Positions 2,130 to 62,966 of a stretch of DNA of 64,000 nt are shown in pieces. The notes below the pieces were generated by a model. The model was given only the letters and a program-made list of their open reading frames with translations, was not told where the DNA came from and ran no database searches. Source of the DNA: Bacillota bacterium (lineage in GTDB: Bacteria; Bacillota; Limnochordia; Darwinibacteriales; DTU012); NCBI GenBank assembly GCA_012840925.1, contig DUVS01000029.1:124202-188201 (forward strand). The letters are read 5' to 3'. Numbering within the stretch: position 1 is the stretch's first letter; each line of letters opens with the position of its first letter. The translations under genes and the position numbers were made by a program.

Positions 2130-3443
2130 CTACACTCCATCTTTCAACCATCGTTCAGGAATCCGGTGCAGCCGGATCAAATCCTGATATTGCTCCCGTT
2201 CCACAACCAAATCAGAGCTCCCACGGTATACTGTGACTATCGGCAAGCGCGGTATGGCATTGTAATTGCTGGCCATGGTATAGTTATATGCTCCTGTACA
2301 AAAAACAGCTAAAAGATCTCCTGGTTCCAGCCGGGGCAATTGGATATTGTTAATCAGCACATCGCCCGATTCACAGTATTTCCCCACAATAGTATATGTT
2401 TTCTCCGGTGATTGACCCATCTTGTTGGCAACCACTGCATGATATCGCGCCTGATACAGAGCCACACGGGGATTATCCCCCATGCCTCCATCAACCGCAG
2501 CGTAAGTCCGTCCACCCTTGTTCTCTTTAATCGAGCCTACGCGATAAATGGTGGTTCCTGCGGCACCAACCAGAGAACGCCCTGGTTCCACCATAATCTT
2601 CGGCATCTCTAACTCATACTTGGCAGCAGCACTGTGAAGCGCTTCTGCCAGAAACTTCCCGAATTCCTGAGTTGAGGCCGGTTGATCGCCAGTAATGTAT
2701 TTGATCCCCAATCCTCCCCCAAGATCCAGCTCAGGCAGCATTATGCCTGCAGCTTTTGCGTTCGCCATGATCGCCATCATCACATCTATAGTCTTTGCGT
2801 AGCTGGCAAGTTCGAAGATTTGTGAGCCAATATGGCAGTGCAAACCACGCAGATTGATCCTGGGCAGGCTGGCAGCGAGCTTGATGGCATCAACAGCCTG
2901 GTTGTTGGCTACGCTGATGCCAAATTTGGAATCCAGTTGGCCTGTCTGAATATAACTGTGGGTATGTGCTTCCACTCCCGGCATGATTCGCAGCATAATA
3001 TCGGCACTCCGGCCCTTTTTCCTGGCCAAATCCGAAAGGAACTCAAGCTCATATAGGTTGTCCACCACGATTCTGCCGATCCCAACCTCAAGGGCAGTGT
3101 CCAGTTCAGCAGCGGTTTTGTTGTTGCCGTGAAAGTATATCTTTTCTGGTGGAAAGCCGGCGGTAAGAGCCATATACAACTCGCCGCCACTGACAACATC
3201 CAGTGATAAGCCAAGGTTTGCCATAAACCGGGCAATGCCTAGTGTCAAAAGGGCTTTGCCGGCGTAAATTATTTCATAGTCAGGCAGGGAGCTTAGTGCG
3301 TCCCGAAATGTGTTTACACTGTTTACGACTTCTTCTTCATCGAAAACGTACAGCGGTGTACCCCACTGTGATGCCAACTTGACAACATCGCACCCGCCGA
3401 TCACCAGATGTCCTGCCTTATTGTGAGTTTCTTTGTAGTTCAA
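2130..3443 (-). CDS. lysA: Diaminopimelate decarboxylase
   Basis: YAGKA (PLP lysine), HCHIGSQ, EPGRSLV, CESGD, GAYNYTM motifs; start moved to TTG at 3443 behind GGGGAGG. Confidence 0.95.
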   Translation of the reverse strand: MNYKETHNKAGHLVIGGCDVVKLASQWGTPLYVFDEEEVVNSVNTFRDALSSLPDYEIIYAGKALLTLGIARFMANLGLSLDVVSGGELYMALTAGFPPEKIYFHGNNKTAAELDTALEVGIGRIVVDNLYELEFLSDLARKKGRSADIMLRIMPGVEAHTHSYIQTGQLDSKFGISVANNQAVDAIKLAASLPRINLRGLHCHIGSQIFELASYAKTIDVMMAIMANAKAAGIMLPELDLGGGLGIKYITGDQPASTQEFGKFLAEALHSAAAKYELEMPKIMVEPGRSLVGAAGTTIYRVGSIKENKGGRTYAAVDGGMGDNPRVALYQARYHAVVANKMGQSPEKTYTIVGKYCESGDVLINNIQLPRLEPGDLLAVFCTGAYNYTMASNYNAIPRLPIVTVYRGSSDLVVEREQYQDLIRLHRIPERWLKDGV

Positions 3444-3475
3444 AGTGGTTCCTCCCCAAACGTGCAACATATAAA

Positions 3476-3493
3476 CCCCCGCCTAAGCGGGGG
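3476..3493 (-). terminator. GC-rich hairpin with U-rich tail in the lysA upstream region
   Basis: CCCCCGC-TTAG-GCGGGGG followed by TTTATATGTT on the minus strand. Confidence 0.45.
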
Positions 3494-3511
3494 ATCTACC
3501 AGATTACCATT

Positions 3512-3540
3512 ATTTTAACATAACAGTCACAAGATAGCAA
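3512..3540 (-). promoter_or_regulatory. Putative sigma-A promoter upstream of lysA
   Basis: TTGCTA-N17-TAAAAT with extended TGn. Confidence 0.55.
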
Positions 3541-3569: not shown

Positions 3570-4556
3570 CTAGTTTCCTGCACCCAACATACCGTACTCC
3601 GAACTGGAATCAGTCTTACCACACCGGGAGCCCCAGCTGGCAATAATCCTTCCATCTTTGACAATATCCACAATCTCGCACTGGTTGGAGCAATCCTGAC
3701 ACTCCCAGCTGTGATTTTGATATACACTTTCGGTTATTTCAAAGCCGTGGAACCTGGTTGCTCCCTCGCGGCATATGGTTTCAGATGCTAGGAGAGCAGC
3801 GCCAATGGCTCCCATGACATCAAAGTGCCGCGGAACTATGACTTCAGCATTCAAAGCCGCTTCAAAAGCTCTCCTCATCCCCTGGTTTGCTGCCACCCCA
3901 CCTTGGAAAACGATTTTGGGTCTGATCTCTTTGCCTTTTCCCACATTGGTGAGGTAATTGCGAACCATAGCATCACAAAGGCCGGCCAGAATGTCTGCCA
4001 AACTGTGGCCTAATTGCTGCTTATGAATCATATCAGATTCGGCGAAAACTGTACAACGGCCGGCAATCCGGACCGGATGGCGGCTTCTCAAAGCAATTCG
4101 GCCAAAGTCTTGAATCGGAATACCTAACCTCGCTGCTTGCTGGTCAAGGAAAGAGCCAGTTCCAGCAGCGCACACTGTATTCATGGCAAAATCACTGACA
4201 ACACCATCCCGCAGAATGATCATCTTTGAATCTTGGCCGCCTATTTCAATGATGGTTTGCACCCCTTTTTCCACGTGCAGCGCAGCAACGGCGTGAGCTG
4301 TGATTTCATTTTTCACCACATCCGCTCCTAAAATCACACCAGCCAGCTGCCGGGCACTACCTGTGGTACCTACGCCTACAATCTGCCATTGGTTTTTCCT
4401 GGCTATTTTGGCCATAGCCCGCTGTAAAGTGCGGATCGGCTGGCCCTGAGTCCGGACATAGACTTTGTCGGCAACTTCCAGGCTGTGGGCATCAAGAAGG
4501 ACGAGATTAGTGCTGACTGATCCCACATCAACTCCAAGATATACAGGCGCTGTCAT
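3570..4556 (-). CDS. Acyl-CoA dehydratase activase (BadF/BadG/BcrA/BcrD ASKHA ATPase, 4Fe-4S)
   Basis: LGVDVGSVST, TGSAR, EIGGQDSK, CAAGTGSFLD, CTVFAES, FQGGVAAN motifs; C-terminal CQDCSNQC...RCGK; start moved to ATG 4556. Confidence 0.92.
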   Translation of the reverse strand: MTAPVYLGVDVGSVSTNLVLLDAHSLEVADKVYVRTQGQPIRTLQRAMAKIARKNQWQIVGVGTTGSARQLAGVILGADVVKNEITAHAVAALHVEKGVQTIIEIGGQDSKMIILRDGVVSDFAMNTVCAAGTGSFLDQQAARLGIPIQDFGRIALRSRHPVRIAGRCTVFAESDMIHKQQLGHSLADILAGLCDAMVRNYLTNVGKGKEIRPKIVFQGGVAANQGMRRAFEAALNAEVIVPRHFDVMGAIGAALLASETICREGATRFHGFEITESVYQNHSWECQDCSNQCEIVDIVKDGRIIASWGSRCGKTDSSSEYGMLGAGN

Positions 4557-5643
4557 GCTGCAACCCTCCTTGACCCCGCCTTGAAAGCAAATCCACGAAT
4601 GCTTCCAGTCTGGTCTGAAATCCTGTCTCGCCTGTGTGTTCATCCACCACCAGCGACAATACAGGGATCTGGTAATCAACACTTACATTGGGCAGAATGC
4701 ACTGGGCCACAATTTCCGGCATACAAGTAAATGGCAAAATATGAATTATTCCATCATACCCCTGACCGGCTAAAGCCACTGTGCGAGCCACCGATTCCAG
4801 GCCGTGCCCTCCTACAGACGCATGAAGATAACCCCGGGCGTTAATCCGCAGCCACCGGTTGCTGTATAAACCTAAAGAAGATAGAATCAAGTTGTTCTTC
4901 AGCCACTGTACTAAACTTACTGTTCGCAGAACCTCCACCCCTAAATAGCCGAGCCGTTCCTCCAGATCAAGGTTGGCAAAGGGTTCCAGTATTGTATAGA
5001 TCTCCCCAACGACACCTACCTTGAGCGGCTCTTGGGCATTGCGATCAATTAAGTCCCGCAGATGATCACATTCTTGCCTGCATAATTTCCGAATACCTCC
5101 GACAGTATTGGTATGGCGTAGTTTTTGCAGAGCCCTGTTCAACACTTGGGTTGCAGCTTTAGGCCTTGCCTCTCTAGGACGCACATAATGAGCGGTTCGT
5201 TCCAGTTTTTCAACAGCCACCAGTTTCTCCCAGGCCAGGGCCAAGCCTTTAGCCAGCGCTTTTACTCCACCTGCTTTGATCAGTGGGATAATCTGCGATT
5301 TAAACCTGACGAAGTCCTCTTTAGGATGATCAAGGACAATAAACTCAATCTCTTTGCCCAAATCATAGAGTATTTCCTGCTGCAGGGCAGCATAATAACC
5401 GAGCCGGCAAGGGCCTCTGCCTCCTACCATCAACCCAGTGTCCGCCCCCAACTCGATACCTTCCAGAAAATTGCCGACACCAAGTTTAAGCGGCAGACAA
5501 ATGGTTTCCGGACTATACTTGGTACCGAGCGTTAAGGTCCGCTTACTGCTGGGTGGCGGAATGATTAAATCAAACTTCAGTTCACTGAGCAAAGCTTCAA
5601 TTGCTATGTACAGGTTTCCCATATGGGGAAAGGTGATTTTCAT
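4528..5643 (-). CDS. 2-hydroxyacyl-CoA dehydratase-like (HGD-D/PlsR-like) subunit
   Basis: ICLPLK, GGRGPCRLGYY, LPFTCMPE, DEHTGETGFQTRLEAF motifs; overlaps both neighbours. Confidence 0.8.
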   Translation of the reverse strand: MKITFPHMGNLYIAIEALLSELKFDLIIPPPSSKRTLTLGTKYSPETICLPLKLGVGNFLEGIELGADTGLMVGGRGPCRLGYYAALQQEILYDLGKEIEFIVLDHPKEDFVRFKSQIIPLIKAGGVKALAKGLALAWEKLVAVEKLERTAHYVRPREARPKAATQVLNRALQKLRHTNTVGGIRKLCRQECDHLRDLIDRNAQEPLKVGVVGEIYTILEPFANLDLEERLGYLGVEVLRTVSLVQWLKNNLILSSLGLYSNRWLRINARGYLHASVGGHGLESVARTVALAGQGYDGIIHILPFTCMPEIVAQCILPNVSVDYQIPVLSLVVDEHTGETGFQTRLEAFVDLLSRRGQGGLQHDSACISWS

Positions 5644-6565
5644 GCTGTTTCCCTCTCTTGAGCAGATCTAAAAACGCTTCGATCCGGGTTAAAACTCCTG
5701 TTTGCCCTGTGTGTTCGTCCAGACTAATCACTAGATGTGGTATTTGGTTCCGATGGCAGTACCTGTCCACCAGGTCAGTGGTCATAGAATCGGTGCCACA
5801 GGCAAAGGACATCAGAGAGACGATCCCATCAGCTTTGGCGGCGAAGTAATGGGCTGACCCGAGAATTCTTTTACCGGACGTCCAAAACATGCGTTTTTTA
5901 AGAAAGCAACTGTGGCCTGCGATGGTGCCGGGATCTATCTGTTCTGCTGTCATGATCTCACATCCAGCCTGCTGCAGCCGCTTGATAATCCCCATGGAAA
6001 TGAACTCGTCATGAAGAAGGTACTCATGGCCCAGGACAGCAATAACCAGGCTGTTCGGGCTGCACTGAGCTCGATTATCGAGTGAATTATTTACCAACTG
6101 CTGTTCGTAGCGGCATTGCTGAGCAGTGGCCTGCCGGTAGGCTTCAAACGCCTTATGGAGTGGAGCAAAACGAGAACCCAGCTTGATGTAAGACCACATC
6201 ACTTTGCTGGTACCTCTGCGTCCATCAATGGTGGGAGACAATAAAGGAGGCAAATCATCCAAGCAGTTGCGTATAATATCTGGCAAACCCATGAATTTGG
6301 GACAGATGTATTCTGCCTTTTCAACACTGACGATATAAGGAATGAACAAGAAGTCCACCCCTTTGGACACCAGATTGTGAACATGGCCGAGATACACCTT
6401 GACCGGTAGACAAATCCCGTCCACTGCAGCTTTGACACCATAATCCAAAATTGCTTTGTTGGTCTGATCTGAGATGACTACCTGCAAACCCAATGTTCGA
6501 AAGAACTCCTGCCACATCGGATAATACCGGTAATAGTACAACGCCCTGGGTATCCCTACTCTCAT
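5597..6565 (-). CDS. DUF2229 acyl-CoA dehydratase activase-related protein
   Basis: MRVGIPRALYYY start, ICLPVKVYLGHV, YICPKFMGLPD, SFACGTD, DEHTGQTGVLTRIEAF motifs. Confidence 0.85.
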   Translation of the reverse strand: MRVGIPRALYYYRYYPMWQEFFRTLGLQVVISDQTNKAILDYGVKAAVDGICLPVKVYLGHVHNLVSKGVDFLFIPYIVSVEKAEYICPKFMGLPDIIRNCLDDLPPLLSPTIDGRRGTSKVMWSYIKLGSRFAPLHKAFEAYRQATAQQCRYEQQLVNNSLDNRAQCSPNSLVIAVLGHEYLLHDEFISMGIIKRLQQAGCEIMTAEQIDPGTIAGHSCFLKKRMFWTSGKRILGSAHYFAAKADGIVSLMSFACGTDSMTTDLVDRYCHRNQIPHLVISLDEHTGQTGVLTRIEAFLDLLKRGKQHENHLSPYGKPVHSN

Positions 6566-6582: not shown

Positions 6583-8046
6583 TTACTTGCGGCGCGTATC
6601 CCGGTCTCTTTTGCCGGCTATGGCTTTTGGCCTCATTGTAATCTGGGGTATTGGATAACGAAAGACGATTCGCAGCAGTGCAGGGCCGTTAAACGGGACC
6701 AGCGGCCACAAATATGGCAGCCCAAAGGACTTTGTCAGGCCAAAAGCTAAAAATGAGGCCAAGAGGCTGACCCCTAACCCGATCCAGTTGAATAAAAACG
6801 TACAGACGAGAATGAAAAAGCGAAACAGGCGCAGTGCCAAAGCGAATTCCAGGCTTGGCGTTCCAAAGGTACCAATCGCTACGATTGCAATATAGAGGAT
6901 CGTTTCAGGAATAAAGATCCCAACCGATACAGCCAGATCACCCAGTAAAATTGCTCCTACGATACCAAGGGAGGTTGCCAGCGCACTTGGTGTATGCACA
7001 AGCGCCATCCGGATCAGGTCCAAGCCAAGTTCCAGGATGATAAACTGAAGCCAGATCGGCACCACGCTTAGTTCTTTCGGCCCCAGCCAGTCCAGCCATG
7101 AAGGCAGATTGGGTGTGTTGACCAAAGCATACCAAACTGGAATTACCAACATCGAGAGAATAATGCCTATGGTCCTGACCCAACGTAAATAGGTGCCTAC
7201 AGGAGGGTTTTGGAAGTATTCCTCTGCATGCTGGGTAAAATGCCAGGCAGTAACTGGTACAATCATGGCAAAAGGTGATGTATCCACAAAAATGCAGACG
7301 TGCCCTTCAAGCATGTGTGCAGCAGCAACATCGGGCCTTTCCGTGTAGCGGGTCACCGGCAGTGGATTAAACGATGTGCCAAGAATATACTCTTCTAGAT
7401 TTTTGCCGCCCATGGGCAGAGCATCTCGGTTAATGCGGGCTATTCGCTGCTTTACTTCAGCAACCAGACTGGCATCTGCAATATCTTCAATATACCCTAC
7501 GAAAATGTCGGTCTTTGAGCGCTCGCCTGCTTGTAACGCCTCAAAGCGCAGCCTTGGATCTCGGATGCGGCGGCGAACCAGATTGGTATTAAACAAAGCT
7601 GTTTCCACGAATCCTTCCCGGGAACCGCGGGTCACACGCTCCAAATCAGGTTCCTCAATGCCGCGGACTGGATATTCCCGCACATCAATGACTATGACAC
7701 TTGTCATTCCATCGATCAATAACAGCAGCGGCCCAGCCAGTAACTGATCAATGGCATCTTCCAAGTCATCGCTCACTTCGATCTCGAAGTATGGCAAGTA
7801 GCGTTTGATAATCTTTTCTAATCCGTTAACTCCCAATTCGCCTCTGGGAATCTGCATCAGTGTCCGCATAATAGCTACTGTTTCCCGGTCTTTGATAAAA
7901 CCGTCAATGAAAATTAAAGCTGCATCTCGCTCACCGATGCAGATTTCCCGGATTAACACATCAAATGTGATGCTTACTCCTAGCCTTTCCTTGATCAGCT
8001 CCAGATTTGTCTCCAGATGTTTGTCAACTGCTGCTGCCATGAGCAT
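6583..8046 (-). CDS. spoVAF: SpoVAF / GerA-family spore membrane protein
   Basis: RGIEEPDLERVTRGSREGFVET, RYTERPDVAAAHMLEG, DTSP, C-terminal TM segments, PYLWPLVPFN; lies upstream of lysA as in Bacillus. Confidence 0.85.
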   Translation of the reverse strand: MLMAAAVDKHLETNLELIKERLGVSITFDVLIREICIGERDAALIFIDGFIKDRETVAIMRTLMQIPRGELGVNGLEKIIKRYLPYFEIEVSDDLEDAIDQLLAGPLLLLIDGMTSVIVIDVREYPVRGIEEPDLERVTRGSREGFVETALFNTNLVRRRIRDPRLRFEALQAGERSKTDIFVGYIEDIADASLVAEVKQRIARINRDALPMGGKNLEEYILGTSFNPLPVTRYTERPDVAAAHMLEGHVCIFVDTSPFAMIVPVTAWHFTQHAEEYFQNPPVGTYLRWVRTIGIILSMLVIPVWYALVNTPNLPSWLDWLGPKELSVVPIWLQFIILELGLDLIRMALVHTPSALATSLGIVGAILLGDLAVSVGIFIPETILYIAIVAIGTFGTPSLEFALALRLFRFFILVCTFLFNWIGLGVSLLASFLAFGLTKSFGLPYLWPLVPFNGPALLRIVFRYPIPQITMRPKAIAGKRDRDTRRK

Positions 8047-8069
8047 AACTCCTTAACCCTACATTTGTA

Positions 8070-8095
8070 AAAAGCGCCTTTTGAGCGGCGCTTTT
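8070..8095. terminator. Intrinsic terminator after the holin-family gene
   Basis: AAAAGCGCC-N8-GGCGCTTTT with T tracts on both strands. Confidence 0.7.
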
Positions 8096-8428
8096 TTATC
8101 GGACTGTTGTCGGCACGAACATGTCGATTATACCAATCACAAATGCTGCCAGTAGCGCTCCCAGTAGTGTCACTTCCATTTCAGGCACTATAAATTGGAC
8201 GGTCCAAATCACAATCGCTGAAACTAAAAAACCGACTATCCCGCGACTGTATGGTGAAACGCTTTTCCCTAAAGTCGCTTCAATCACCCACCCAATGACG
8301 GCAATCACCACTGCTGCCAGCAGCGCATTCCAGAATCCCATCGTGCTAAAACCGGGGAGAAGGAAACCTACCGCCATCAGTACCAGCGCTGAAACAACAA
8401 AACGGACAACAGCACTTAGCCAATCCAT
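8096..8428 (-). CDS. Phage holin family IV (YvlD-like) 4-TM membrane protein
   Basis: Four hydrophobic segments, ALLAAVVIAVI...GFLVSAIVIW pattern; start at ATG 8428 behind GAGGTG. Confidence 0.8.
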   Translation of the reverse strand: MDWLSAVVRFVVSALVLMAVGFLLPGFSTMGFWNALLAAVVIAVIGWVIEATLGKSVSPYSRGIVGFLVSAIVIWTVQFIVPEMEVTLLGALLAAFVIGIIDMFVPTTVR

Positions 8429-8459
8429 CACATCACCTCGTTTCAAGTTTATCCCCTAC

Positions 8460-8489
8460 TAGTATTGCCACAAAGCAAGGTTGATATCC
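8460..8489 (-). promoter_or_regulatory. Putative forespore (sigma-F/sigma-G) promoter
   Basis: GGATA-N15-GGCAATACTA; shares TTGTGGCAATACT with the sigG promoter. Confidence 0.6.
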
Positions 8490-51724: not shown

Positions 51725-51759
51725 CCAACTAAAGCCATTTGCGGCTTCATTTTGTCTGC

Positions 51760-52088
51760 TAAGTGAATTTATAAGCCGAGTTCTGTCGAGGATGATCATC
51801 TATCTGGGACACTAGTTACCTAATGTCTCATGCGGCCAACCCGAGAGTATAGCGGAACGGGCAATTCCTTCTCCCCTATTTGGCCTTGCTCCGGATGGGG
51901 TTTACCTAGCCGATTAGTCACCTAGTCGCTGGTGAGCTCTTACCTCACCTTTTCACCCTTACCTGTTCAGGCGGTATGTTTCTGTGGCACTTTCCTTAGG
52001 GTTGCCCCCACTGGGTGTTACCCAGCATCCTGCCCTGTGGAGCTCGGACTTTCCTCAGGAATAATCCCGCGATCATCTAATTCACTTA
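51760..52088 (-). ncRNA. rnpB: RNase P RNA (bacterial type A)
   Basis: GAGGAAAGUCCGAGCUC near the 5' end, GUGCCACAGAAA, ACAGAACUCGGCUUAU at the 3' end; P1 helix UAAGUGAAUU/AAUUCACUUA. Confidence 0.96.
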
Positions 52089-62890: not shown

Positions 62891-62966
62891 TGGTGGACCC
62901 CCTGGGATTTGAACCCAGGACCAACAGATTATGAGTCTGCTGCTCTAACCGCTGAGCTAGGGGTCC
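62891..62966 (-). tRNA. tRNA with CAT anticodon, most likely tRNA-Ile2 (lysidine-modified)
   Basis: 76-nt cloverleaf GGACCCC...GGGGTCCACCA, loop CTCATAA, GTTCAAA T loop, encoded CCA; sequence and position downstream of rpoD resemble ileX rather than tRNA-Met. Confidence 0.93.

Follow-up and report, generated by a model that had tools for sequence, protein, structure and literature searches.

The described systems closest to the three genes reported here (RedA, RedB, and ACT, hereafter the triad) are the anaerobic plasmalogen synthase PlsA/PlsR, which C. perfringens encodes as CPE1194/1195 and Enterococcus, Lactococcus, and Bifidobacterium as a single-gene PlsA, and the glycerol ester reductase Ger of T. 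maritima (Tmari_0479) and D. alkenivorans. They are the enzymes with shown activities in the DUF2229 family (PMC13159169, PMC12838417), and every confirmed ether-lipid producer retains the 'BBD' core, with two activase domains fused N-terminally to Red1 (PMC13159169). The 2-hydroxyacyl-CoA dehydratases HadBC/HadI and HgdAB/HgdC resemble the triad in being heterodimers of paralogous subunits, each with a three-cysteine [4Fe-4S] site, served by an ATP-dependent activase. DCCP/DCCP-R of Carboxydothermus hydrogenoformans and the class I benzoyl-CoA reductases (BCR) BzdNOPQ and MbdONPQ share with it the superfamily, the fold, and ATP-driven electron injection. The known sets of sporulation genes derive largely from work on Bacillus subtilis and Clostridioides difficile. 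The spoVA operon of B. subtilis (spoVAA-AF, then lysA) is sigmaG-dependent, and we know of no triad between its spoVAF and lysA. If absent from B. subtilis, the triad would be overlooked by surveys based on the genes of that organism.

In the window (the whole stretch of DNA analysed, 64,000 nucleotides), spoVAF, RedA, RedB, and the HgdC-type activase gene ACT follow one another on the minus strand, and a hairpin and lysA come next; all features located below lie on that strand. The stop of spoVAF (6583..8046; a GerA-family spore inner-membrane protein of 487 aa; Pfam GerA, 488 bits) lies at 6583, 17 nt from the start of RedA. The ORFs of RedA (P0001, 5597..6565; Red1-type catalytic subunit, 322 aa) and RedB (P0002, 4528..5643; Red2-type paralogous subunit, 371 aa) overlap by 47 nt. 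The ORF of ACT (3570..4556; HgdC/BcrAD-type activase ATPase) is open from 4682, but translation probably begins at the conserved ATG at 4556 (MTAPVYLGVDVGS), giving a 29-nt overlap with RedB. The three overlapping ORFs that the first-pass annotation had placed 17 bp past spoVAF were thus all recovered.

By inspection, spoVAF-RedA-RedB-ACT is a four-gene unit flanked on both sides by hairpins. The upstream one (8069..8091, GCGCC-loop-GGCGC then TTTTT) is terminator-like, leaves 22 nt to the start codon of spoVAF, and is conserved in the related loci L003-L005. Since there is no room for a promoter between it and spoVAF, the latter is probably transcribed by read-through or from a promoter overlapping the hairpin. 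A gene for a 116-aa membrane protein of the Phage_holin_4_2 family (8096..8446; PF04020, 62 bits) precedes the hairpin, and is kept at the same position in L003 and L005; the transcription unit may begin with it. The downstream hairpin (3476..3493, CCCCCGC-TTAG-GCGGGGG then TTTAT) is GC-rich and is likely the 3' end of the unit. Alternatively, it may be a leader structure of lysA, since it sits upstream of that gene and downstream of a sigma-70-like site (TTGCTA-17-TAAAAT, 3540-3512) found between ACT and the hairpin. The lysA gene itself (2130..3470; diaminopimelate decarboxylase; TIGR01048, 479 bits), whose likely true start is a TTG at 3443 preceded by GGGGAGG, lies outside the module.

RedA matched the Pfam family DUF2229 at 181.5 bits (cut-off 29.4) over profile positions 1-217 of 218, and RedB matched it at 37.6 bits over its N-terminal part only. 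Both subunits carry an HGD-D tail; the Pfam HGD-D model covered the C-terminal 60 residues only, at 26 bits against a cut-off of 28.4, and in this the triad differs from HadBC and HgdAB. We do not know of DUF2229 or of the Cys4 activase tail in 2-hydroxyacyl-CoA dehydratases. ACT matched BcrAD_BadFG (PF01869) at 159 bits (cut-off 31.5) and TIGR00241 at 183 bits (cut-off 125.4), and contains NTVCAAGTG and GRCTVFAES, which we take for the cluster-ligand regions known from HgdC-type activases. The motifs quoted in the first-pass annotation were all found, namely ICLPxK and DEHTGxTGxxTRxEAF in both RedA and RedB, CPKF and SFACG in RedA, GPCR and PFTCMP in RedB, and CQDCSNQC...RCGK, a CxxCxNxC-x18-C tail, at the C terminus of the activase. 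RedA and RedB are paralogues, as it had proposed (25% identity over 201 aa, E 3e-13), and no transmembrane segment was apparent by eye in either.

The AlphaFold2 model of RedA (pLDDT 90.2) was compared with solved structures by Foldseek. The top 13 matches were HadBC, BzdNO, DCCP, and MbdON (probability 1.0, TM 0.46-0.59), among them the DCCP and BCR entries 7yyl, 6eno, 8s02, and 9gai. HadBC gave the best fold match (3o3m, TM 0.56-0.59), yet was only 12-13% identical. The solved HAD, BCR, and DCCP structures are distant fold matches only (TM 0.5-0.59, 10-14% identity), and the triad does not cluster with the dehydratases of amino-acid fermentation, as it would have had to under a refuting condition of the first-pass annotation. 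Unlike the triad, DCCP pairs two identical subunits and carries an [8Fe-9S] cluster, and the triad scored 16.7 bits with NF040772 (double_cubane) against a cut-off of 350; the BCR activases differ from ACT in being heterodimers of two different subunits.

To place the triad relative to PlsA and Ger, six proteins of the fused Act-Act-Red1-Red2 type (1062-1455 aa) were used; the ~1430-aa comparators are 66-70% identical to Clostridium proteins and stand in for the characterised PlsA/Ger sequences themselves. The alignments with all six spanned residues 3-315 of RedA, on Red1, and residues 3-363 of RedB, on Red2, and RedA grouped with Red1 and RedB with Red2 in the tree. The split forms fell into two clades. 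Clade 1 (77 leaves, support 0.91) includes the window triad, all 42 spoVA-linked copies, and 28 relocated ones, and the second split copies form a separate clade 2 (support 0.96). The cysteines C52, C88, and C256 of RedA are invariant among 32 RedA homologues and also in the two split clades as well as in fused Red1. Aligned counterparts of C52 and C256 exist in RedB and Red2, and the cysteine sites of RedB lie in ICLPLK, GPCR, and PFTCMP. The Cys4 tail was present in 59 of 59 clade-1 activases, in 9 of 9 clade-2 activases, and, after Act2, in five of the six fused proteins. The domain content of PlsA/PlsR/Ger that had been claimed for the triad was thus borne out by the full-length alignments and by the match between the ACT tail and the motif after Act2. 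Common to both are the DUF2229-type Red1, the paralogous Red2, the HGD-D-like tails, the cluster cysteines (PMC13159169, PMC12838417), and an HgdC-type activase followed by a CxxCxxxC...C motif. Judged from these sequences, the triad was shown to belong to the ATP-driven Fe-S enzyme class of the BCR/HAD/DCCP superfamily, in its DUF2229 (PlsA/Ger) branch.

The gene order is Red1-Red2-Act in three genes in the triad and Act1-Act2-Red1-Red2 in PlsA and Ger. Two activase domains N-terminal to Red1 are absent; instead, a single activase gene lies downstream of RedB. The first-pass annotation had set one activase against two. HgdC-type activases, however, function as homodimers, so that the single ACT gene, presumably encoding a homodimer, is equivalent to the fused Act1-Act2, and the distinction falls away.

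The further notion of a simply split plasmalogen synthase did not hold. In the tree, the split RedA group (support 0.80) excludes the fused Red1 proteins, which form a clade of their own (support 0.966), and the triad and the fused proteins are 24-27% identical. K90, F91, H285, G287, and T293 are specific to the split forms, and D49 and H180 to clade 1. The split-versus-fused differences fall in the conserved region of DEHTG, which reads mostly DE[VI][NS]N in the fused proteins. Moreover, of 16 named genomes, at least nine have split triads in addition to a fused protein of ~1430 aa. An assignment of the triad as a PlsA orthologue was rejected on these grounds, and by sequence the triad is not one. 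We read the DUF2229 family as at least three lineages, namely the fused proteins, the spore-linked split form, and the second split clade. Surveys that equate any DUF2229 protein or 'PlsA homologue' with ether-lipid capacity may therefore over-call.

The genomic setting was surveyed in 80 related loci, in which spoVA genes and the sigma factor were confirmed by Pfam and the other genes were named by eye. The order RedA-RedB-ACT was maintained across them, and in about 45 the triad stood at the end of an ancestral spoIIA-spoVA block with the order xerD-deoB-pdp-dacF-spoIIAA-spoIIAB-sigF-spoVAC-AD-AEb-(AEa)-(AF)-triad-(lysA)-...-scpA-scpB. With the B. subtilis region this block has dacF, spoIIA, spoVAC/AD/AE, spoVAF, lysA, scpA, and scpB in common. 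The gap between the spoVA gene and the triad was 30 nt or less in 17 of 35 loci, and spoVAF was 43-89% identical to the gene directly upstream of RedA in about 29. The link to sporulation suggested from the single locus is thus real and broader than spoVAF alone, with about half of the loci in the spoIIA-spoVA block. In the literature, we found no paper on an association of the triad with spoVA or sporulation.

The suggested restriction to spore formers was also upheld in a sample of 301 genomes of the phylum (247, or 82%, SpoVAD-positive and 54 SpoVAD-negative; the counts ignore kinship), in which clade 1 was nearly confined to SpoVAD-positive genomes. The clade-1 profile scored best in 135 of the 301, and 133 of these have SpoVAD. 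It was best in only two of the 54 SpoVAD-negative genomes, one being a weak match and the other the window's own MAG, which is 94% complete and whose three congeners have SpoVAD. In the six genomes that clearly lack SpoVAD but gave a strong RedA match, the copy was of the clade-2 type. A clade-1-type copy was present in at least 133 of the 247 SpoVAD-positive genomes, and the split triad was missing from 50 of them; it is therefore not essential for sporulation. In its linkage to spoVA and its near confinement to SpoVAD-positive genomes, the triad, known from sequence, differs from PlsA and Ger. We read the clade-1 triad as having originally closed the spoVA operon of Clostridia.

Forespore-type promoters were sought with the expression G[ACT]AT[AG]-N17/18-[CA]A[ACT][AT][ACT]TA, which is AT-rich and has a 5% background rate. 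It matched upstream of 13 of 30 relocated clade-1 RedA genes compared with 11 of 209 control genes taken from those loci (p 1.4e-7); the matching loci are in many cases interrelated. It matched upstream of 9 of 24 spoVAC genes, the positive control, in 5 of 18 internal gaps, and upstream of none of nine clade-2 copies. In the window, a strict match was not found before spoVAF; a near-match, GGATA-N18-AATACTA, lies upstream of the holin-like gene (8460..8489). GGATA and ATACTA are conserved in L003-L005 while the adjoining bases vary. This is a weak candidate, since each element has one mismatch to the expression and L005 has a longer spacer.

Since clade 1 is nearly confined to spoVA genomes and its relocated copies often carry sigmaF/sigmaG-type motifs, the triad is most probably made in the forespore, and by extension presumably in that of this organism. 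We consider it reasonably probable that spoVAF-RedA-RedB-ACT is a sporulation transcription unit for an ATP-driven, low-potential Fe-S radical enzyme of the DUF2229 (PlsA/Ger) branch. Its near-exclusive occurrence in spore formers and its frequent spore-type promoters suggest that the triad probably performs an unstudied reaction in the developing spore. A complete ATP-driven radical enzyme on the operon of the dipicolinate channel, or behind a forespore-type motif, would point to oxygen-sensitive chemistry in the developing spores of anaerobes.

By analogy with HgdC/HadI, HadBC, and DCCP, the ACT homodimer would hold a bridging [4Fe-4S] cluster, with an extra Cys4 cluster on each monomer. A ferredoxin or flavodoxin would pass an electron to ACT, and ATP hydrolysis would drive its injection into a RedA/RedB heterodimer. 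Each Red subunit would carry a three-cysteine [4Fe-4S] cluster with one iron site open, at which the carbonyl oxygen of the substrate could bind to give a ketyl-type radical, followed by C-O bond cleavage or reduction. As a tentative candidate for the substrate, we propose the sn-1 acyl ester of a forespore inner-membrane glycerolipid, which would be converted into an alkyl or alk-1-enyl ether by an activity distinct from that of the housekeeping fused PlsA-like enzyme. The only pointer to a lipid is homology, at the identity given above.

The fuller proposal, an ancestral spoVA-operon, forespore-specific lipid ester reductase that makes ether or vinyl-ether lipids of the inner membrane while SpoVA loads dipicolinate, is possible but somewhat doubtful. 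The association with sporulation would fit equally well if the forespore triad acted on a soluble small molecule, either like a 2-hydroxyacyl-CoA dehydratase or, in the manner of DCCP, by reducing a small unsaturated or carbonyl compound, with possible roles in metabolic shutdown, detoxification, or preparation of spore-core solutes. The nearest solved folds, HadBC, BzdNO, DCCP, and MbdON, all use soluble substrates, the residues around DEHTG are unlike those of the fused PlsA-like proteins, and RedA and RedB lack apparent membrane segments. However, DUF2229, the Red1/Red2 tandem, and the Cys4 tail belong to the PlsA/Ger branch, in which the only shown activities concern glycerolipid esters, and no recurrent CoA-transferase, CoA-ligase, or acyl-CoA dehydrogenase neighbour was noticed in the 80 loci, where most non-sporulation clusters were named by eye or unnamed. 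We regard such a soluble substrate as doubtful. If the lipid ester reductase does operate in the forespore, it would explain in chemical terms why the inner spore membrane of anaerobes is so poorly permeable and stays stable for so long, also in the very heat-resistant spores that thermophilic Clostridia form.

Two further readings were considered. The triad might be a split, isofunctional PlsA/PlsR that makes plasmalogens or ether lipids for the vegetative membrane, its position beside spoVAF being a frozen ancestral order. The shared domain content and the fact that the triad is the sole DUF2229/HGD-D system of its 1.72-Mb genome would agree with this, as would the plasmalogens and alkyl ethers that related Peptococcia-type bacteria make during growth (PMC8982180). 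The coexistence with fused PlsA-like genes, the separate clade with its low identity, the enrichment of forespore-type motifs at relocated copies, and the operon-like spacing to spoVA genes make it unlikely, and clade 1 is nearly absent from SpoVAD-negative genomes although anaerobic non-sporeformers also produce plasmalogens. Action on an intermediate of lysine or dipicolinate synthesis, which the first-pass annotation had raised, is very improbable. Dipicolinate and lysine do have a common precursor, (4S)-4-hydroxy-2,3,4,5-tetrahydrodipicolinate, and lysA is downstream here and in about 22 of the 80 loci. Nevertheless, the spoVAF-lysA adjacency is ancestral and occurs in Bacillus without the triad, so that it predates the triad or is independent of it; most loci lack a nearby lysA but usually retain spoVA genes or a forespore-type promoter. 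Furthermore, lysA has an apparent promoter-like site of its own and a hairpin separates it from ACT, and dapA, dapB, and dpaAB were not seen adjoining the triad in the 80 loci.

The window's genome also departs from the B. subtilis arrangement. The genes spoVAC, spoVAD, and spoVAE were not found in this assembly, and spoVAF with the triad lies 85 kb away from spoIIA-sigF. The same genome has spoIIM, dacF, spoIIAA, spoIIAB, sigF, spoVS, and ytfJ.

The three genes of the triad lie on the minus strand behind spoVAF (8046-6583, minus). The RedA gene (6565-5597) begins 17 nt from spoVAF and shares 47 nt with the RedB gene (5643-4528), which in turn shares 29 nt with the activase gene ACT (4556-3570; the ORF is open from 4682, with 4556 as the probable start). 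All of the sequence motifs that the first-pass annotation had quoted were found in these ORFs. In the Pfam comparison, RedA covered the whole DUF2229 profile (181.5 bits) and also carried an HGD-D tail, and RedB contained the N-terminal part of DUF2229 and the same tail; the two proteins are paralogues (25% identity, E 3e-13). ACT was assigned to the TIGR00241 activases (NCBIfam, 183 bits). The triad was the sole DUF2229/HGD-D system of the 1.72-Mb MAG (94% complete).

The AlphaFold2 model of RedA was confident (pLDDT 90.2) and was closest to the solved folds of HadBC (2-hydroxyisocaproyl-CoA dehydratase), BzdNO and MbdON (benzoyl-CoA reductase), and the double-cubane protein DCCP, with TM-scores of 0.46-0.59. 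The fold matches were at 10-14% identity; RedA is therefore a member of the ATP-dependent Fe-S radical enzyme superfamily, yet distant from all of its solved members. A sequence search against solved structures gave weak matches to the tail only. C52, C88, and C256 of RedA were invariant among 32 homologues, a pattern that fits a three-Cys [4Fe-4S] site leaving one iron open. The triad is predicted to work by electron injection.

Published work gives PlsA/PlsR the architecture Act1-Act2-Red1 plus Red2 and writes Ger, in Pfam terms, as BBDHDDH; upon anaerobic expression in E. coli, both enzymes convert the sn-1 esters of glycerolipids into vinyl or alkyl ethers (PMC12838417, PMC13159169). The triad was compared with six fused proteins of 1062-1455 aa, taken from genomes in which split triads are present as well. 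RedA aligned over its full length with Red1 of all six (24-27% identity, E 1e-22 to 1e-29), and RedB aligned with Red2. In the tree, Red1 joined RedA and Red2 joined RedB; therefore, the A/B duplication took place before the fused and split forms diverged. Fused Red1 keeps all three RedA cysteines. The CxxCxNxC-x18-C tail of ACT was present in all 59 activases of clade 1 (the split clade of the window's RedA) and all 9 of clade 2 (a second split clade), and 5 of the 6 fused proteins have an equivalent of this Cys4 motif behind Act2. The collinearity, the tree, the shared cysteines, and the activase tail all bear out the domain comparison to PlsA/PlsR and Ger made in the first-pass annotation, and the triad is homologous to both halves of the fused enzymes. 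The contrast drawn there between one and two activases carries no meaningful difference, because activases of the HgdC type work as homodimers and a homodimer from one gene is equivalent.

Gene neighborhoods were compared at 80 related loci, which came from named genomes and MAGs. RedB followed RedA in all but a few of them, and an activase adjoined in 59. About 45 of the 80 share one block, (spoIIM)-xerD-deoB-pdp-dacF-spoIIAA-spoIIAB-sigF-spoVAC-spoVAD-spoVAEb-(spoVAEa)-(spoVAF)-triad-(trpB-like)-(lysA)-...-M50 peptidase-trpS-scpA-scpB-ytfJ, in which SpoVAD, SpoVAC/AEb, SpoVAE1, and the sigma factor were named by Pfam and the remainder by eye. This order is known from B. subtilis, except that the triad is added after the spoVA genes. 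Loci without spoVAF have the triad directly behind spoVAEb, and the gap was at most 30 nt in 17 of the 35 loci with a same-strand spoVA gene immediately upstream. At L034, L039, L057, and about ten further loci (Thermoanaerobacter, Caldanaerobacter, and several other lineages), RedA-RedB had no adjoining activase gene, and the activase is presumably encoded at another site. In five Tissierellales loci (L010, L014, L024, L025, and L056), the clade-1 triad precedes genes for two small membrane proteins and one HD-GYP-like protein, in that order; the membrane proteins carry the nucleoside-recognition Gate domain (PF07670) known from the spore maturation proteins SpmA/SpmB.

In the window's own genome, spoIIM, dacF, spoIIAA, spoIIAB, and sigF were located at 39160-46091 of contig C20, the contig that also holds spoVAF, 85 kb away; spoVS and ytfJ were present as well. 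No spoVAC, spoVAD, or spoVAE was found across the whole 94%-complete MAG assembly. Therefore, the ancestral block has been broken in this lineage, and spoVAF, the triad, lysA, the M50-family peptidase gene, and scpAB have held together despite the break. SpoVAD was present in three congeners, on other contigs.

The RedA clade of the window comprised 77 leaves (support 0.91) and included all 42 spoVA-linked copies, with 28 copies of other context nested within. Since the latter are nested, the spoVA-linked position appears from the tree to be ancestral for clade 1, and the arrangements in Acetivibrio, Tissierellales, and Thermoanaerobacter seem to be derived. The second copies of nine genomes made up the separate clade 2 (support 0.96). 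Its triads (L094-L103, second copies in named genomes) have the gene order and the activase Cys4 tail of clade 1, and SpoVAD-negative genomes are among the carriers. Their neighbors were mixed (TldD/PmbA, a decarboxylase, ABC transporters, a GH18 protein) and did not point to a substrate. One gene family precedes the triad at L096, L097, and L100; its L096 member combines GH18 (PF00704) with a peptidoglycan-binding domain (PF01471) and resembles spore cortex hydrolases. A link to selenium was judged irrelevant to clade 1; a STRING table places an activase near selenium genes (Slackia), and one clade-2 copy lies beside selA/selB.

Profiles for clade-1 RedA, clade-2 RedA, and SpoVAD (PF07451) were searched in 301 genomes of the window's phylum, 82% of which are SpoVAD-positive. 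SpoVAD was found in 197 of the 205 genomes with any strong split RedA and in 50 of the 96 others, these 50 being SpoVAD-positive without a split triad (odds ratio 22.7, p 2e-19, in a test that ignores phylogeny). Where the clade-1 profile scored best, 133 of 135 genomes were SpoVAD-positive; per-genome scores did not permit a clade assignment for 64 genomes. The two exceptions were the window's MAG, whose three congeners are all SpoVAD-positive, and one weak hit (1e-72). Six further SpoVAD-negative genomes had a strong RedA hit; in these, the clade-2 profile scored higher, and five of the six were clearly single-copy. The clade-1 triad is therefore nearly restricted to SpoVAD-positive genomes.

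Upstream regions were searched with G[ACT]AT[AG]-N17/18-[CA]A[ACT][AT][ACT]TA, which approximates the sigmaG/sigmaF consensus of B. subtilis. Forespore-type motifs were enriched before clade-1 RedA genes outside the spoVA block (13/30) compared with control genes of the same loci having at least 50 nt upstream (11/209; p 1.4e-7). The positive control spoVAC gave 9/24 matches, RedA genes with a larger gap behind a spoVA gene gave 5/18, and the clade-2 triads were without the motif (0/9). In the Acetivibrio group, GTATA/GAATA and AATAATA elements kept a distance of about 48 nt to the start codon, and the other intergenic sequence was variable. The pattern missed several Tissierellales loci in which CATAATA is paired with a TTATA -35 element.

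The promoter picture in the window is weaker than in its relatives. A terminator-like hairpin with a T-run (8091-8069, minus) stops 22 nt short of the start codon of spoVAF and is kept in relatives; spoVAF may be transcribed by read-through, by attenuation, or from a promoter overlapping this hairpin. The only candidate promoter, GGATA-N18-AATACTA (8489-8460), lies upstream of the holin-family membrane protein gene (116 aa, 8446-8096, minus); it is imperfect but kept in three relatives. The triad is probably expressed in the forespore of the window's organism. A sigma-70 promoter right before spoVAF was discounted, the only match (TTTACA-18-TATGCT) overlapping the start codon. A dodecin gene (70 aa, 8711-8499, minus; PF07311, 89.7 bits) lies between an M19 dipeptidase gene (9724-8756, minus) and the holin-like gene, immediately before the candidate forespore-type promoter, and is kept in the related loci L003-L005.

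The first-pass annotation had given the module the domain content of a split PlsA/PlsR-like enzyme. The homology holds, but a plain split plasmalogen synthase does not fit. Red1 of the fused proteins branches as a separate clade (support 0.966), and the split RedA group (0.80) does not include it. A fused protein of about 1430 aa is accompanied by a split triad, or by two, in at least 9 of the 16 named genomes (among them Thermoanaerobacterium, two Syntrophomonas spp., three Tissierellales, an Alkaliphilus, a Desulfotomaculum, and a Pelotomaculum). Moreover, conserved residues differ: K90, F91, H285, G287, and T293 of the split form correspond to I/M, V, V/I, N, and I in the fused proteins, and D49 and H180 of clade 1 to A/P and Y in clade 2 and to S and R in the fused proteins. 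The fused family has the length and architecture of single-gene PlsA and is highly conserved (66-70% identity between Thermoanaerobacterium and Clostridium across Red1-Red2). A housekeeping PlsA role for the triad is unlikely.

For the triad, the most economical guess is that it reduces lipid esters in the inner membrane of the forespore, since the only DUF2229 enzymes of known activity perform that chemistry and since the triad is found together with inner-membrane proteins of the spore. Given the active-site differences, we hold this substrate only tentatively, and a soluble substrate instead of a lipid is a serious rival. A role in the lysine/dipicolinate pathway, also put forward for the module between spoVAF and lysA, is unlikely and was rejected by synteny: lysA is close by in only about 22 of the 80 loci, and the triad thus tracks spoVA rather than lysA. 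In the literature searched (the DUF2229 family, activases, and spore plasmalogens or ether lipids), nothing ties the family to sporulation, and the main text of the C. difficile sporulation-regulon papers mentions no such genes; the association of the triad with spoVA and sporulation is without description in the searchable literature.

Downstream of the triad, a sigma-70-like TTGCTA-17-TAAAAT, a GC-rich hairpin (3493-3476), and lysA follow one another (3441-3540, minus). This hairpin may terminate the spoVAF unit or serve as a lysA leader; it had no match in Rfam at the gathering threshold. Of the two possible lysA starts (3470/3443-2130, minus), the TTG at 3443 behind GGGGAGG is probably used, not the ATG at 3470. 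The M50-family peptidase gene, scpA, and scpB lie downstream of lysA on the same strand. A class A RNase P RNA (51756-52088, minus; 312 bits) and a tRNA (62894-62966, minus) were ordinary. Among the fused proteins, that of Pelotomaculum propionicicum (L092, 1455 aa) is a divergent Act-Act-Red1-Red2 on a long branch, with a DUF2229 score of only 145 bits and no Cys4 motif behind Act2, and may represent a further subfamily.
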